Source: a virus (taxonomy: Duplodnaviria > Caudoviricetes). Taken from it: DNA of 53,114 bases. A model generated the notes under the pieces. The model searched no databases and was not told the origin of the DNA. It saw only the letters and a program-made list of their open reading frames with translations. The position numbers and the translations under genes are program-made. Shown here piece after piece: positions 1,952 through 31,917 of this stretch. Positions within the stretch are counted from its first letter, which is position 1, and each line of letters begins with the position of its first letter. The stretch spans positions 1 to 53,114 of IMG/VR virus record IMGVR_UViG_3300034283_001180, one strand, 5' to 3'.

Positions 1952-1978
1952 CAAGAAGAAGGGCCCCCGAAGGGGCCC
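1952..1978 (-). terminator. intrinsic terminator
   Basis: GGGCCCC-TTCG-GGGGCCC stem with cUUCGg loop followed by TTCTTCTTG. Confidence 0.7.
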
Positions 1979-2081
1979 TAGAATGTGAGGCTGCTAGCAC
2001 AAACGAAAGGAATTAAGTAAAAGCTGCCTTACTTAGCGACTTGGTGACTAACCCTAGTAGCCGCACCTCACAAGATGTGAA
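1952..2081 (-). ncRNA. candidate ~130-nt sRNA carrying an anti-SD segment
   Basis: TGGTATAAT at 2087-2095, closing stems, exposed UUCCUUUCGUUUG, and its own terminator. Confidence 0.5.
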
Positions 2082-2087
2082 CCTCTA

Positions 2088-2492
2088 TTATACCAAAATC
2101 TTGGCGTCCGTGTATTTCTCAACAAATGCACGTAGGTCCATGGTGAACATTGCTTCGTTCTTCATACCTCGAACCTTATTAGATTCGTTATGGAATGAAT
2201 CTTCTTCATGAAGACTGAATGTACATTCGAGCCAGTTTACTACAGGAATCTTATGCTCATTGTCTGAGATTTCATTTACCTGCAGGCCCCATCCAGTTTC
2301 CGAAGCCCATGCGTCGCCAATCATATTACTGATTGCGATACGTGTAGCATATGAAGGGTCCGACCAACGTGGCTGTGCCTTTGCTACTGCCTCTGCTAAA
2401 TTCTCTAGCATGTTGTAGCCTGCCCAGTGCCCATATAGTACGATTGTCTCTCCGCTTGGTTGTACAAAGACGAAGTTTGCACGGTCTCCCAT
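2088..2492 (-). CDS. hypothetical early protein
   Basis: ORF track; GAAAGGA SD; MGDRAN..LYGHWAG start typical of actinophage early proteins. Confidence 0.8.
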   Translation of the reverse strand: MGDRANFVFVQPSGETIVLYGHWAGYNMLENLAEAVAKAQPRWSDPSYATRIAISNMIGDAWASETGWGLQVNEISDNEHKIPVVNWLECTFSLHEEDSFHNESNKVRGMKNEAMFTMDLRAFVEKYTDAKILV

Positions 2493-3520: not shown

Positions 3521-3650
3521 TGTATTCCTTTCGTTGTTATGTGGAGTATTATAGCGGACCTGACTGACATTTACAACCAGGTTTCGGGAAAAAAGTTTTG
3601 TGATACGTAACACACGCTGCCTGCCTTCAGTTGTGCGGGCGTATTAGCTG

Positions 3651-3726
3651 CGACCCCAACGGGATTTGAACCCGTGATCTCCACCGTGACAGGGTGGCGA
3701 ATTAAACCAGACTATTCCATGGGGCC
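3651..3726 (-). tRNA. tRNA-Asp(GUC)
   Basis: Acceptor GGCCCCA/TGGGGTC, anticodon arm CCACC-CTGTCAC-GGTGG, T-loop TTCAAAT, G discriminator, no encoded CCA. Confidence 0.93.
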
Positions 3727-3758: not shown

Positions 3759-4769
3759 TTAGAATGACTTTACAACTTGAAGAATCTTATTCTTCTCAGC
3801 AGTAATAACAGGGTCGAATCCTGAAGCAGAAGCCCACTTCGATTCTGAATTACTCTTACGAGTAGGGCGGAAATAATCAAGGCGTTCAGTAAGCGCATTG
3901 AAAGCACCCCATTTTGTACCCTTGATGTTAGCATTAGTTGGTGAGTTATGATAAAGGTCATTTAGCAAAACAACTTTATTATCCCACTTAGTCTTAGCCA
4001 ATTTAGAATCTGATTCAGCAGGCTTAGGATAAATTGTTTTTACAATATCCTGAAATTGCTTATCAGTAATCTCAGCATTGAATAGAGCCTGAGCCTCTTT
4101 TTCGAATGAATCGAAATAGCCTAGAGTTAGACCAAGAGTTTCACGAGCAATTTGAATCTTGCCTTCAGCGGTCTGTGTGTGGCGAATCTTGAAAGATTGC
4201 TTAGCAGACTTCATTGCTAGATTCAAAGTGTTTTGGCATACAACACGAACAGGAGTAATTGCTGCCTGAACAGCAACAGAGCCGTCGTGTGATGTCCATA
4301 CAATAAGATAAAGTTTTGTCTTATCGTTAGCACCTTGTGGGTCTAAAACCATTTCACGAGGAACAGTAAGAGAACCGAATACAACTTTACCAGCCTTTAG
4401 AGAGCCAGCAGATTCCCAAGCGCAGCGAGAATCGCCATCTAGAATGTTATCAGCGAATGAAAATAGTTCTTCATTCTGAACAACTTTATATCTAGAACCT
4501 ACAACAGAAAGAACATCAGTTCCTCCATTGAATGGGTTATTACGAATTACATATTGTGAACCAGAACTATCGTTCCATTCAGCAGGAATATGTTCAGCAA
4601 CAGGAGATAAGCGTACGTCCCAATTGGAAAGTTTTGCTTCATCGAGCATGAGTTGTGTTGAAACTTCTTCATCTTGTGAGAAGATTCGATTTGCGAGATT
4701 GTGCCATGCGGGAGTTCCACGCAAGGCGAAAGCGACTTCGTCGCCATTGATTTCAAGGTTATGAGCCAT
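3759..4769 (-). CDS. DUF932 family phage/plasmid protein (TIGR03299-like)
   Basis: AWHNL, ESAGSL..GK.VF, SHDGS, TPVRVVCQNTL, IRHT and GTKWGAFNALTE motifs. Confidence 0.9.
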   Translation of the reverse strand: MAHNLEINGDEVAFALRGTPAWHNLANRIFSQDEEVSTQLMLDEAKLSNWDVRLSPVAEHIPAEWNDSSGSQYVIRNNPFNGGTDVLSVVGSRYKVVQNEELFSFADNILDGDSRCAWESAGSLKAGKVVFGSLTVPREMVLDPQGANDKTKLYLIVWTSHDGSVAVQAAITPVRVVCQNTLNLAMKSAKQSFKIRHTQTAEGKIQIARETLGLTLGYFDSFEKEAQALFNAEITDKQFQDIVKTIYPKPAESDSKLAKTKWDNKVVLLNDLYHNSPTNANIKGTKWGAFNALTERLDYFRPTRKSNSESKWASASGFDPVITAEKNKILQVVKSF

Positions 4770-5021: not shown

Positions 5022-5741
5022 TTATTTTTTACTCGCAGAAAATCGAATGTCTGCCTTGTTATAGACACACAGGCCGCATGATACGCATGCGCTACCATTA
5101 GCAGAAATAAGTGGAATAGACTTATTGTTTTCAGGGCACTTAGCACCAACTTTACCAGTCAATTCTTTCATTGTTGTTTCGGTGACAGCGAAAGTCTTTC
5201 CTAGATAAGCAAGGCGGGTACCATGAGAGACACGCAATTCCTTAGCAATATCCTTATTTTCATCATCCGTCGAATAGTATAGAGACAGATTAGAAATTCC
5301 TTTTAGGATAACAGCAGCAGAGGCTACACGTGTATAGACCCAAAATTGAACATCAGAGTGTTTCTCAATAACAGTCTTCCATGCATATGAATATGTCTCG
5401 CTAAAGAAATCTCCGTCCCAGTGAATACGGAATAGTTTATCTGCAGAACGCTTATCACAGTCAGCCTTGAATTCTACAATCATCTCATCTAGAAGAGATA
5501 CCATTGTTTCAATATCTGCATTGCGTAGGAGCTCCCAGTTATGCAAGAGTACAGCTCTAACGCCTTTATATATTTTTTCTAGTTTACCAGCATAGCAGAC
5601 AGACTCGCAAATACTAGTAGCACCAGGGCAAGAATACTCCCTACCAGCAGGTAGGCCAAAAGTATTCGCAATCGTGGGGGTTTTTCCGTTTGGGGATACC
5701 GCATTGGTAACTTTCCTATCTTTTGAGCGTTTTAGTTTCAT
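5022..5741 (-). CDS. Gp88-like Fe-S/radical-SAM-like phage protein
   Basis: CPGATSICESVCYA, FRIHWDGDFF, FWVYTR, CP...CVSCGLC; ATG at 5741 lies 7 nt after TAGAAT (leaderless). Confidence 0.8.
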   Translation of the reverse strand: MKLKRSKDRKVTNAVSPNGKTPTIANTFGLPAGREYSCPGATSICESVCYAGKLEKIYKGVRAVLLHNWELLRNADIETMVSLLDEMIVEFKADCDKRSADKLFRIHWDGDFFSETYSYAWKTVIEKHSDVQFWVYTRVASAAVILKGISNLSLYYSTDDENKDIAKELRVSHGTRLAYLGKTFAVTETTMKELTGKVGAKCPENNKSIPLISANGSACVSCGLCVYNKADIRFSASKK

Positions 5742-5754
5742 GGTAGACATTCTA

Positions 5755-5901
5755 TCACCACATACCGACAGCAAATTCGGCAACAGTATCTAAGCATTCG
5801 GCGCATGACCAATCATCGCCATAGACCTCATATTCCGCCTCATCACCAAAATAGGTGGCAGTGCCACAAATCTCATAATATAAACAAGCAACTTTTATCA
5901 T
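5755..5901 (-). CDS. 48-aa Cys-containing acidic protein
   Basis: Manual translation MIKVACLYYEICG...WSCAECLDTVAEFAVGMW; AACGAAAGGA SD and promoter copy. Confidence 0.7.
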   Translation of the reverse strand: MIKVACLYYEICGTATYFGDEAEYEVYGDDWSCAECLDTVAEFAVGMW

Positions 5902-7667: not shown

Positions 7668-7723
7668 TTGTTTCCTTTCGTTGTTGTTAGTGGGCTAGAT
7701 TATAGCCTAGCCCACCGACATTT

Positions 7724-11198: not shown

Positions 11199-11273
11199 GG
11201 GGATATAGCTTAATCTGGTTAAAGCAATTGTCTTATATACAATCGAGTTTGGGTTCAAATCCCAATATCCCTA
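11199..11273 (+). tRNA. tRNA-Ile(UAU)
   Basis: Acceptor GGGGATA/TATCCCT, D-arm GCTT..AAGC, anticodon arm ATTGT-CTTATAT-ACAAT, T-arm TTGGG-TTCAAAT-CCCAA, A discriminator. Confidence 0.88.
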
Positions 11274-11548
11274 CAAAAATTTTTTTTAACATTTTATAAA
11301 TCTAAAATACTAGTCGACTAGAATACCTATTGACTTTGCTAATTTTTTAATGATACACTTTAGTTCGGTTTGTGGGGGCTTACACTGGAACTCAAATATA
11401 CCAGATGTCTTGCTTCTCCTATCTCAACATTGTAGCAATTTTTTCAATGGGGGGAAAGGGGGGCTTTCCTAAAATCTAAATTCCCAGATATCATTTATAT
11501 AGTAAATATACTATAATTATCACATATATTTATAAAAGGAGATTTATC

Positions 11549-14248: not shown

Positions 14249-14907
14249 GAGTATTTATTATTGTCGTAAAAATTTGGTACCTTTAAAAATGCTGGTAACA
14301 CATATCTAATAGGGCCAGCACCAACATGTCTAACTCCATGATTAAACTCATCATTACCTGGGAAGACAATTAGTGTTCCAGGCTCTGGAACAATTTCAAT
14401 GTTTTTGTTGGGCCAGAACACCTGACCATTTTTATAATCATCATGTATATATATGATTGCTGCATACTTAATTGATGGATCTGTGTGTTGATCTGTATGG
14501 GCTACAAGTTCCACCCCTTCTGGCATTCTTTGAAAAAAATAAAATCCAGAGCATATTAACTTTTCTGTACCTTGATCCATAATTTTTTGAAGTCGATTAC
14601 TTACTTGGTGATGAATAGGGTTATCTGTAAATGCTAAGTTTTTATCGTGCCAGTTTTGTGTTACTTCGAATAGACCTTCTGCAACTAAATTTTCAACATC
14701 ATCTCTTCCAAACTTAGCCATACAGAATTTAGCAAGTCCTTGCGTATACTGAATTTCCCAATCAGCTTGAGTAGCATTGTTTATTATTTCAAAATATTGT
14801 TTAATTTCTTCGTCTGTAACAAAATTTTTTACAAGCAATAATCCTTCTACTGGAGTTTCTACTTCATAGCCAGCAGATTCCATTTCTTTTTTGAGATATG
14901 TTGTCAT
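14245..14907 (-). CDS. 2OG-Fe(II) oxygenase, prolyl-hydroxylase-like
   Basis: HTD, YIHDDYKNG, HGV, RY; leaderless after TGATATAAT. Confidence 0.88.
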   Translation of the reverse strand: MTTYLKKEMESAGYEVETPVEGLLLVKNFVTDEEIKQYFEIINNATQADWEIQYTQGLAKFCMAKFGRDDVENLVAEGLFEVTQNWHDKNLAFTDNPIHHQVSNRLQKIMDQGTEKLICSGFYFFQRMPEGVELVAHTDQHTDPSIKYAAIIYIHDDYKNGQVFWPNKNIEIVPEPGTLIVFPGNDEFNHGVRHVGAGPIRYVLPAFLKVPNFYDNNKYS

Positions 14908-14921
14908 GGTTATATTATATC

Positions 14922-14956
14922 AAAAAACCCTAATAGGAGGCGGATCCTATTAGGGT
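14922..14956 (-). terminator. intrinsic terminator
   Basis: CCCTAATAGGA/TCCTATTAGGG stem followed by a T-run on the minus strand. Confidence 0.65.
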
Positions 14957-29765: not shown

Positions 29766-30440
29766 ATGCAAACTTGGTCATCAAAAGAGTCTCTAGGGAA
29801 TGGTATATTTGTCTATAGAGATGTTATAAAAAAAGAAATTGATGTAATAGGCAGACTAGAAAACATTCTTAGTCCAGTAAATTCTGGCGCTAAGTATGCA
29901 TGGCAGCCAGCGTATGTTGGGTATCAAGAACTTATGCCAGATTATAGAGACTGTGTAGATTTTAAATTCAAGAAGACCGACATTCAATTTGATAAAAGCG
30001 AAGAGTCCTCAAAACTTCAAAAATTGTGGCAAGACGTATTTGATGTACAATCTCCAGCCGTAAATGATTATAGAAAAGAACATAATCTTATGGACCTTAA
30101 ATACTGGGAAGCATTTAATTTTATTAAGTATGGACCAGGACAACACTTTATGGAGCACCACGATCATGGATACTCATATAATTGTACTGTCTCTTTAGTT
30201 GCATATGTTAATGATGATTACGAGGGTGGAGAATTATATTTCAGGTTGCAAAACCTGAATATTAAGCCAAAAGCTGGAGATTTATATATATTCCCTTCTA
30301 ACTACATGTACCCACATCAAGCAAAGCCAGTTATATCGGGAACAAAATATTCAATTGTTACTATGTTAGATTATAGTGGCAAGTTCCACTCACAAGAAAT
30401 GTATGATCCTAAATGGGAGAATGAGCCAAGTGTTAGTTAA
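29766..30440 (+). CDS. 2OG-Fe(II) oxygenase, prolyl 4-hydroxylase-like
   Basis: HHD, YVNDDYEGGEL.F, FPSNY.Y.H, KY; close paralog of 28297; ATG at 29766 preferred. Confidence 0.9.
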   Translation: MQTWSSKESLGNGIFVYRDVIKKEIDVIGRLENILSPVNSGAKYAWQPAYVGYQELMPDYRDCVDFKFKKTDIQFDKSEESSKLQKLWQDVFDVQSPAVNDYRKEHNLMDLKYWEAFNFIKYGPGQHFMEHHDHGYSYNCTVSLVAYVNDDYEGGELYFRLQNLNIKPKAGDLYIFPSNYMYPHQAKPVISGTKYSIVTMLDYSGKFHSQEMYDPKWENEPSVS

Positions 30441-31146
30441 AGCCTATAAACATGCTGGACATAGGGTAAAGATAGAGCAGACTAAAGTAAAAAGGGACTG
30501 GATGGATGCTACTGATAATGCTCATGCATACAAATGCTTTCCAGTTAGTTTAGCTAATACAATTGGATGGTCGATATCATTACTAGACGATGTCGAGTTT
30601 ATTTGGGATGGAATATCTGACTCAAGTTCGGAACACGTAAAGGTTTTAAAGGATCCAGCTGGAGCCTGTAGTACACAACGCTCTAATGGCACAATAAGTT
30701 TTTATACTGGTATCTTTTTTGAGACAGATAAAGACACGACAATGCTACAAATAGTTCCTCCTAATTACTTTATAGATGGTGCTGCGCCATTTACAACTCT
30801 TATATCCACATCTTTTTTTCCAGAAGCAATTCCAGTTGCATGGAAAATAACTAGACCAAACACAGTAATAACTATACCAGCTGGTACTCCAATAGCTACT
30901 TTTATTCCAATATCATTGGCTAAATACAATGAGGTAGAGTTAGAAATTCAGGATAAGGTGTGGCCAGAGCTTTCTTGGAAACAAAAAGAAGAAAGAAACA
31001 AGGTCTGGCAAGAAATAACTATGCAGGGCAAGTTTACTAATTTTTATAGAGATGGTGTAGAGTATGATGGAACAAAAATTGGTGACCATGAATTAAAGGC
31101 TATAAGGTTAAAAATTAACGATTTTTCTACAAAGATAGAGGAGTGA
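30421..31146 (+). CDS. DUF6065 family protein
   Basis: RDWMD...HAYKCFP...AN..GW and WKITRP......AGTP signature; ATG at 30421. Confidence 0.75.
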   Translation: MSQVLVKAYKHAGHRVKIEQTKVKRDWMDATDNAHAYKCFPVSLANTIGWSISLLDDVEFIWDGISDSSSEHVKVLKDPAGACSTQRSNGTISFYTGIFFETDKDTTMLQIVPPNYFIDGAAPFTTLISTSFFPEAIPVAWKITRPNTVITIPAGTPIATFIPISLAKYNEVELEIQDKVWPELSWKQKEERNKVWQEITMQGKFTNFYRDGVEYDGTKIGDHELKAIRLKINDFSTKIEE

Positions 31147-31158
31147 TATAATATTAAT

Positions 31159-31917
31159 ATGGAAAAGATGAATGTAAATCATTTAGATCAGGTGACAAAA
31201 TCTATCACCCCATCAGGATTTTTTGGGACCAGCAAAGATAATATTGTTGAACTAGAAAACTTTATGACAGAAGAAGAGATAGACTTTTTGGAAAAATCTG
31301 CAAAAGGTATAACAATTTGGGATTATACAGAAAGCCATGTCAATGAAAATGGAACCACAATATATGATGCTAACTATTGGAAAGATAGAGTGGCAACTAG
31401 ACCATCATTAGATAAGAATGATCCAAAAATTGGTCCAGTTATTGAAGGTCTATTTAAAAGACTTCAGCCAATTATAGAAGACTTTTTCTATGTTAGAGTA
31501 CAGCCAACTGGACAAACAATTGTAAGATGGTTACCAGGACAATTACAAAAACCTCATGCTGATAAAGAACTACATGATGGTCCAGATGCAGGACTGCCAA
31601 ATGATTTTCCATATTACGACATAGCAAGTTTATTTTATTTAAACGATGACTACGAAGGTGGAGAAATCTACTGGCCTCTACAAGGAGTTAGAATTAAGCC
31701 TAAAAGAGGAGCAGCATACTTTTTCCCAGGAGACATGAATTATATACATGGCGTCACCGAGATAAAAGGAAATATAAGATATACAGTTCCTTTCTTTTGG
31801 ACCATATTAGAACACACTGGAGAAAATAAGCCTGAGGCAGGTAAAGAGTATTATAGGACGCTATTAGATCCAGAAATGCGTGGAAAGAATCTTTATGAAA
31901 GTGTTTACGAGGGGTAA
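31159..31917 (+). CDS. 2OG-Fe(II) oxygenase, prolyl-hydroxylase-like
   Basis: HAD, YLNDDYEGGE, HGV, RY; leaderless after TGATATAAT. Confidence 0.9.
   Translation: MEKMNVNHLDQVTKSITPSGFFGTSKDNIVELENFMTEEEIDFLEKSAKGITIWDYTESHVNENGTTIYDANYWKDRVATRPSLDKNDPKIGPVIEGLFKRLQPIIEDFFYVRVQPTGQTIVRWLPGQLQKPHADKELHDGPDAGLPNDFPYYDIASLFYLNDDYEGGEIYWPLQGVRIKPKRGAAYFFPGDMNYIHGVTEIKGNIRYTVPFFWTILEHTGENKPEAGKEYYRTLLDPEMRGKNLYESVYEG

Follow-up and report, generated by a model that had tools for sequence, protein, structure and literature searches.

A predicted small RNA gene of uncultured freshwater phages, with a conserved three-way-junction fold and a loop complementary to the early-gene leaders

The locus and its transcription signals

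The stretch of DNA analysed here, which we call the window (53,114 nucleotides, nt), is a 53-kilobase (kb) fragment of a Caudoviricetes virus, record IMGVR_UViG_3300034283_001180 of IMG/VR, with a completeness of about 44% and a G+C content of about 37%. Its genes lie in two arms, one on the minus strand from position 1 to about 11 kb, the early arm, and one of large genes on the plus strand from 11.5 kb onward. Within the early arm, between an open reading frame (ORF) of 134 amino acids (aa) at 2088–2492 on the minus strand and the 264-aa ORF that follows it, lies an element that, on the evidence of its sequence, is a conserved, structured small RNA (sRNA) gene of a new family. The gene occupies 1953–2095 on the minus strand, and its predicted product is a non-coding RNA of about 125 nt with about 90 structured bases.

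The promoter and the terminator that the initial annotation had placed at the two ends of this gene both read as claimed. On the minus strand, the extended −10 box TGGTATAAT (2087–2095) overlaps the last codons and the TAA stop (2088–2090) of the 134-aa ORF, and transcription would start at 2077–2081, about 7 nt past the box, on the pattern of the leaderless TATAAT-N7-ATG genes of the family. At the other end is the intrinsic terminator GGGCCCC-UUCG-GGGGCCC, followed by UUCUUCUU (1953–1978, minus strand, the hairpin itself at 1961–1978).

Among 70 distinct upstream contexts of homologs, 51 carry the extended −10 pattern TGnTAnnnT and three further ones TTGACA-N18-TATAAT, the rest having mostly a TATAAY-like box 5–8 nt before P1, the outer helix of the RNA; under a strict rule 44 of 70 distinct contexts have a terminator-like hairpin downstream, and inspection by eye adds more. 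The TGTCRG box of the early promoters, which had been described as missing from the sRNA promoter, is indeed absent there, both in the window and in the contexts of the relatives (0/70). The sRNA promoter probably belongs to a non-early class of ordinary host type, unlike the early TGTCRGT-N9-TAnnnT, and TGnTATAAT, with 12 copies vs. 4.9 expected, also stands ahead of several genes of the plus strand, leaderless ones among them. From the promoter box, the terminator and the lack of a conserved ORF we infer a separate transcription unit. The arrangement is not that of a cis-acting leader or riboswitch: the terminator lies directly downstream, and about 130 nt further on a separate TGTCAG promoter serves the 264-aa ORF, which is the next gene.

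Fold, strand and distribution of the family

Relatives were gathered in IMG/VR through the flanking proteins (30 loci through the 134-aa ORF and, through the 264-aa ORF, 153 confirmed stretches, of which 80 were kept). By blastn the element was found in 48 of the gathered loci at 72–88% identity, the flanking proteins being just 68–88% identical. A MAFFT alignment of 23 sequences gave a consensus fold with the helices P1 and P2; with the third helix, P3, added by hand, 95.2% of the cells in this set are paired, 10 of 21 pairs show compensatory changes, and none of 500 shuffles reaches this. Sliding the partners in the same set drops pairing to 25–46%. For the covariance model R1 there were 98 sources, the window and 97 of the 110 related loci (13 were left out as contig duplicates), and it matches 88 of them (87 of the 97 related loci), always on the gene strand, leaving 10 loci unmatched. 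In the window its single match is at 1982–2074 on the minus strand (98.1 bits). Over 68 distinct sequences 96.3% of the cells are paired and 15 of 21 pairs are compensatory (279 such cells; 0/500 shuffles reach this), in an alignment that was fitted to R1 and is thereby biased towards structure; the 23-sequence MAFFT result is the independent one. The search for covariation among relatives thus turned up a structured RNA family.

The strand can be read from the kinds of mismatch, with 196 G-U cells vs. 7 A-C cells, and canonical pairs in 96.3% of cells on the gene strand vs. 82.5% on the other. The excess of G-U over A-C identifies the minus strand as the RNA strand. Folding of the single sequence does not single out the minus strand (z-score −1.66 vs. 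−2.87 for the plus strand).

The conserved fold is a three-way junction of P1, P2 and P3, all on the minus strand. P1 is formed by UGUGAGGU (2065–2072) and GCCUCACA (1984–1991), with compensatory changes in four of seven pairs and an invariant GGU/GCC end. P2 (2036–2064), in which GCGGCU (2059–2064) pairs with AGUCGC (2036–2041), encloses a variable inner hairpin; 99.5% of its cells are paired, four of its six pairs are compensatory, and a G-U pair is invariant in group 1. The junction J23, UAAGUAAG (2028–2035; family consensus UAARUAAN), is conserved and unpaired in the alignments, and J31 is in the alignment the single base A1992. P3 (1993–2027), which pairs GCAGC (2023–2027) with GCU[A]GC (1993–1998) around a bulged A, closes a loop of 24 nt (1999–2022; 16–27 nt across the family). 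All five of its pairs are compensatory, and the compensatory forms include GCGUC/GACGGC, GCUGGC/GCCAAGC, GCAGAG/CUCUAGC and GCAUCGG/CCGAUAGC.

The initial annotation had drawn three stems, of which TGTGAGG/CCTCACA corresponds to P1 and has been kept by evolution. The other two did not survive the comparison, TAAGTAA/TTACTTA having no compensatory pairs and changes that break its pairs, and GGCTACTAG/CTAGCAGCC doing no better than shuffles. A pseudoknot, with P3 as a loop-to-3′ pairing over the TAAGTAA hairpin, was dropped because this hairpin is not conserved, and P3 is a plain helix. A tag-like mini-frame after J23 was also rejected, there being no conserved frame or stop past the invariant CUAGCAGCC. 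The stretches GGUGCGGCU and AAGUCG..UAA..AAGG resemble the 3′ end of 16S ribosomal RNA (rRNA), a likeness that we dismissed as chance; as a mimic of the 16S end they were rejected, their positions being the strands of P2, which covary and differ across the family.

A search of the whole window with Rfam 15 at the gathering threshold returned two transfer RNAs (tRNAs) only, both away from the element, and a search of 1900–2150 at E up to 10 gave five matches of 10–19 bits, vs. thresholds of 37.8–70, that fell mostly on the terminator. A strict pattern finds the RNA family in at least 119 IMG/VR contigs. In 185,579 species genomes it finds only three short contigs (about 3 kb each) of metagenome-assembled genomes, which are likely mis-binned phage pieces, given that they are short and isolated, so that no host copy is evident. 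A query of 901 bases and one of just the 93-base RNA both gave no match by blastn against 50,697 GenBank phage records. The family belongs to a large set of uncultured freshwater phages of about 110–120 kb.

The P3 loop and the leaders of the early genes

The loop of P3 carries the putative anti-leader seed UCCUUUCGUU (2002–2011, minus strand), the complement of the word AACGAAAGGA of the early leaders, and the core of this seed, CUUUCGUU (2002–2009), is exactly complementary to the core conserved in the leaders, AACGAAAG. Around the core the loop of the window reads UUCCUUUCGUUUG, a type found in 30 homologs, the other types being UACUUUCGUUGG (n = 27), UUUCUUUCGUUGGAA (n = 16) and UUCCUUUCGUUGAGG (n = 10). 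The predicted probability that the seed is unpaired is 0.62–0.98. The conservation that a functional loop calls for holds in most of the family, with CUUUCGUU present in the P3 loop of 84 of the 88 homologs, amid variable loop flanks and on a variable P3 stem, and fails in four of the 88, which have no loop motif.

The window contains nine exact copies of AACGAAAGGA vs. 0.06 expected. Eight are on the minus strand, at 1793, 3526, 5909, 6866, 7093, 7673, 7981 and 8951, the first of which (1793–1802), in the leader of the 264-aa gene, may serve as the example of a target; as had been noticed at the outset, only one copy is inverted, on the plus strand at 2002–2011, and this is the sRNA loop. With one mismatch there are 15 copies vs. 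3.4 expected. All eight minus-strand copies lie 8–16 nt past the −10 of a TGTCRGT-N9-TAnnnT promoter and 5–10 nt ahead of an ATG. This early promoter has 15 sites, all on the minus strand between 424 and 10670 (e.g., 1811–1832, 3548–3569, and 7699–7720), and a looser pattern gives 19 overlapping matches vs. 0.6 expected, with one stray at 29959. Its aaTGTCRGT box, at about −28 to −23, is too near the −10 for a normal −35 and may serve as an operator or bind a phage-specific factor; that the TGTCRG box separately serves a transcriptional shut-off is speculation.

The same correspondence is seen in the relatives. Among 388 distinct sequences downstream of early promoters, 236 have GAAAG, and in these the conserved pattern is A-A-C-GAAAG-G, with 1.5, 0.9 and 1.1 bits at the three positions before the anchor and 1.2 after it. 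Read as its complement, the sRNA loop is conserved as AAC-GAAAG-n-AA (1.8 bits for each base of AAC), and the limits of conservation coincide, neither leaders nor loop being conserved upstream of AAC. Three complete relatives (110–120 kb) have 7, 12 and 14 copies of AACGAAAG on one strand within about 10 kb, and in each the lone opposite-strand copy inside the cluster is the sRNA gene; two of the three have one stray opposite-strand copy each elsewhere. A lake phage, DSL-LC01, has the similar leader CAACGACGAAAGGA, and no R1 match was found in the 6.3-kb stretch of it that was searched.

Duplexes of the loop with the exact-copy leaders are predicted at −13.7 to −18.6 kcal/mol. Energies of −12 kcal/mol or lower are reached by 10 of 15 early leaders vs. 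2 of 37 late start regions, and the mean for early leaders is −13.2 vs. −8.2 ± 1.2 for 300 shuffled loops. With ORF starts taken mechanically, GAAAGG stands upstream of 12 of 41 early-arm ORFs, some of which are surely not genes, vs. none of 37 late ORFs (plus-strand genes from 11.5 to 47 kb), which have GGAG, AGGAG or GGAGG as ribosome-binding sites. Two dialects of ribosome-binding site are thus written in one window, GAAAGG early and the GGAG type late. With GAAAGG upstream of early-arm ORFs and of no late one, the loop would discriminate early from late start sites. An alternative role proposed in the initial annotation, mimicry of the 16S 3′ tail against host messenger RNAs (mRNAs), is not supported by the family. 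A mimic of this kind is expected to carry a CCUCC-type anti-Shine-Dalgarno motif; the invariant part here is CUUUCGUU, and ACUUUCGUU, the form seen in a third of the family, makes a poorer pairing with GGA.

Genomic setting, proposed function and alternatives

Of 87 loci, 83 have the sRNA 0–120 nt past the homolog of the 134-aa ORF. This ORF belongs to phrog_31860, a PHROG of unknown function; it has no Pfam family, the Atlas gave only unnamed viral clusters, and its structure model, although confident (predicted local distance difference test, pLDDT, 88.9), has no fold match by Foldseek (best E 0.17) or in a wide search with VIA (best Z 3.8). In the Streptomyces phage StarPlatinum (locus L113) its homolog gp197 (2001–2396) is 22 nt upstream of a transfer-messenger RNA (tmRNA; 2418–2699), which scores 92.5 bits vs. 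Rfam RF00023, and in Gordonia and Nocardia phages the homologs have ordinary genes alongside and no RNA gene. That the protein family stands beside an RNA gene in two very distant phage groups may be chance.

Other early-arm ORFs, 2494–2700, 3759–4769, 5022–5783 and 995–1789 (all on the minus strand), belong to families of unknown function, respectively DUF7455, DUF932, GP88 and, weakly, DUF1281_C. Past the sRNA terminator, and kept in nearly all homolog contexts, is a box GCCCRCAA-N6-8-GAGGGTA (1930–1952 in the window, minus strand); in the window three copies of TGTGAG and one of TGTGAT come next (about 1843–1892), and the box may be a regulator site upstream of the promoter of the 264-aa gene. 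The two tRNA genes, tRNA-Asp(GTC) at 3650–3726 on the minus strand and tRNA-Ile(TAT) at 11199–11274 on the plus strand, were found by both the Rfam search and ARAGORN; in metatranscriptome run X3 the former shows a depth spike of 1662.9, of which cross-mapping of cellular tRNA is the probable cause.

Several genes of the window are probably leaderless, with a −10 box, often TGnTATAAT, 6–7 nt ahead of the start codon. The candidates, all identified by the spacing of the box, have it at 36073–36081 with ATG at 36088 (plus strand), at 31144–31152 with ATG at 31159 (plus strand), at 14914–14922 with ATG at 14907 (minus strand), and within 5749–5770 (minus strand). Because leaderless genes of this TATAAT-N7-ATG type are typical of Actinobacteria, the host is probably actinobacterial; the remote protein relatives are actinophages (of Streptomyces, Gordonia, and Nocardia) and a lake “Actinomycetia phage”.

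We give about an even chance to the proposal that the element encodes a trans-acting anti-leader sRNA that represses the translation of early genes. The RNA would start at the host-type extended −10 promoter, and in the window would also form the tail of an early operon from about 3569; stabilised by the junction fold and the terminator, it would accumulate. The P3 loop would then pair in trans with the 5′-proximal leader AACGAAAGG(A) that opens eight or more early mRNAs, hiding the early-type Shine-Dalgarno GAAAGG and excluding 30S subunits, and the paired mRNAs would probably be exposed to decay. The potential targets that carry AACGAAAG are eight leaders in the window and 7–14 in each complete relative. 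The late genes, with GGAG-type sites and without GAAAGG, would escape, so the early set would be shut down selectively as the RNA accumulates. As for the conserved junction, its role may be to place the seed in an exposed loop or to bind a partner.

The closest known phage case, as far as the accounts cited here go, is the c4 antisense RNA of P1 and P7, and functionally the closest are RegB and RegA of T4. In what the source says of it, c4 is a trans-acting RNA whose exposed loops pair with a ribosome-binding region and block translation, so that both are phage-encoded small RNAs with a loop directed at such a region, a role that is predicted in the present case (PMC12197685). Unlike c4, which in that description acts on one operon (icd-ant, immunity), the RNA here matches a leader common to 8–15 early transcription units, and its fold is a three-way junction. 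The RegB endoribonuclease and the RegA repressor are described as inactivating many early mRNAs at Shine-Dalgarno or start regions, which speeds the early-to-middle switch, and the predicted targeting of many early mRNAs at their start regions would be analogous (PMC3014915). Unlike these proteins, with which there is no sequence or structural relation, the recogniser here would be an RNA that base-pairs with a leader word. In the actinobacterial 6C RNA and the staphylococcal UCCC-motif RNAs (e.g., RsaE and RNAIII), pyrimidine-rich loop seeds pair with the purine-rich ribosome-binding sites of several mRNAs without Hfq. The RNA here likewise shows a pyrimidine-rich seed in a hairpin loop; unlike those RNAs, which are products of host genes and have C-rich loops, its CUUUCGUU reaches past the Shine-Dalgarno sequence into the AAC word of the early leaders. 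The Rfam search matched it to none of 6C, RsaE and RNAIII, nor to the C4 family, which is presumably held in Rfam.

Several observations weigh against a trans-acting anti-leader RNA. Metatranscriptome contigs from two studies (X1, 1978–2376; X2, 2001–2297) have no differences to the window over the element, and coverage of this kind is a weak hint of expression; the RNA-library contigs are unstranded and extend from the element into the upstream ORF, so that neither strand nor ends can be read. The summed depth of X2, 97.8 in the bin 2010–2110 vs. 15.8–19.8 in neighbouring bins, is a sum over the contigs of relatives that cross-map on the conserved part, with possible carry-over of DNA, and as a measure of expression level the depths were rejected as unusable, consisting of contigs and cross-mapping relatives. 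Many relatives have, past the −10 box and ahead of P1, a short GC hairpin followed by a U run, which may protect the 5′ end or terminate the upstream gene and makes the promoter reading insecure. As to the pairing itself, one of the 300 shuffled loops matched the observed mean duplex energy, the loop flanks do not covary with the leader flanks between groups of the RNA, and group 2 has A for C before CUUUC, losing one pair with a Shine-Dalgarno G. One sRNA gene would also need to titrate 8–15 mRNA species, and the conserved UAARUAAN junction and the bulged A, which plain antisense action does not explain, may point to a protein partner or another function.

To these is added the evidence of the four homologs without CUUUCGUU (L089, 2713–2787; L090, 2715–2790; L069, 5038–5105; L097, 4833–4917), which retain the scaffold, with the same P1, P2 and J23, and have short G-rich P3 loops (AGUGUGG, AUAUGGG, and CUGGGGGUGUU). 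L089 and L090 retain AACGAAAG leaders, and no second copy of the RNA was found in their records, one of which is 99% complete. By eye, the P2 tips of these two read ACCUUUC and ACCCUUUUC, and this CCUUUC-type tip might be a relocated anti-Shine-Dalgarno sequence, to which we attach little weight. The complement of the L097 loop is unenriched in its genome (with up to two mismatches, 41 scattered matches vs. 21 in the control). The idea that the variant loops are programmable guides was rejected, an exact complement of the L097 loop occurring only in its own RNA gene.

These variants count in favour of a structured scaffold or decoy whose main role would be to bind a protein or the ribosome (e.g., the 134-aa product or a host nuclease), with the loop motif as a point of contact and the match of loop and leader secondary or coincidental: the same scaffold bears another loop in 4 of 88 homologs, in two of them despite unchanged leaders, conservation in J23, the bulged A and the GGU/GCC closure equals that in the loop, and the linkage to the 134-aa gene holds in 83 of 87 loci. 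We nevertheless consider this explanation unlikely, if by no means negligible. The most over-represented motif of the early arm has its exact complement in the 8-mer core, with coinciding limits of conservation, and no RNA-binding family or fold can be recognised in the 134-aa protein, whose homologs in the Gordonia and Nocardia phages have no adjoining RNA gene and whose linkage to the RNA may reflect no more than synteny among close relatives. The RNA might otherwise act in cis, as the 3′ untranslated region of the operon that ends in the 134-aa gene, whether as a stabiliser, as an accessory of the terminator or as a 5′-3′ lock with the operon's own leader. With no terminator between the 134-aa ORF and the element in the window, an operon from the promoter near 3569 would carry leader and anti-leader together, and the RNA-library contigs do continue from the element into the ORF. 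In most relatives, however, a separate TGnTATAAT box, often accompanied by a terminator-like hairpin, stands between the ORF stop and P1, a stabiliser would need far less than a three-way junction in which 15 of 21 pairs covary, and the motif matches many unlinked leaders besides that of the operon, all of which makes a role in cis quite improbable.

The genuine tmRNA that follows gp197 of StarPlatinum by 22 nt suggested a remnant or miniature of a tmRNA or tRNA-like gene. Neither ARAGORN nor Rfam finds a tRNA or tmRNA at the element (ARAGORN finds no tmRNA, and Rfam no RF00023 match, in the whole window), T-arm, CCA end and a conserved tag frame are all absent in the family alignments, and R1 reaches at best 5.5 bits at the StarPlatinum locus, which is no match; such an origin is largely refuted, and we give it very little credence. 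An element acting as DNA (an inverted-repeat protein site or an origin), or the ribosome-binding site of a plus-strand micro-ORF, which had been named as a reading that would undo the proposal, is refuted and can be given next to no probability. The plus strand does fold slightly better (z-scores as above), but the 196 G-U vs. 7 A-C cells bespeak selection on a minus-strand RNA, there is no conserved plus-strand ORF and no ATG, GTG or TTG within 29 nt past the motif, the sole plus-strand ORF beginning at 2041, and the variable P2 insertions would disrupt such a frame.

It is well known that sRNAs can block ribosome-binding sites by base pairing. A full-text search of the literature, judged mostly at the level of abstracts, found no phage sRNA aimed at the common leader of the phage's own early regulon, and a search on freshwater actinophages yielded nothing on RNAs. 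The structure described here is unusually well backed by covariation, and the family is new to Rfam and abundant. On the broader reading, which we hold tentatively and at somewhat below an even chance, the early messages would carry a private word, AACGAAAGG, that late genes do not use, and one stable, scaffolded sRNA would read the whole regulon, giving an early shut-off by RNA–RNA recognition, the RNA counterpart of RegB and RegA of T4. If confirmed, the anti-leader RNA would offer a compact scaffold that displays a seed in its loop independently of Hfq, and a way into the gene timing of uncultured freshwater phages, whose hosts are probably actinobacterial.

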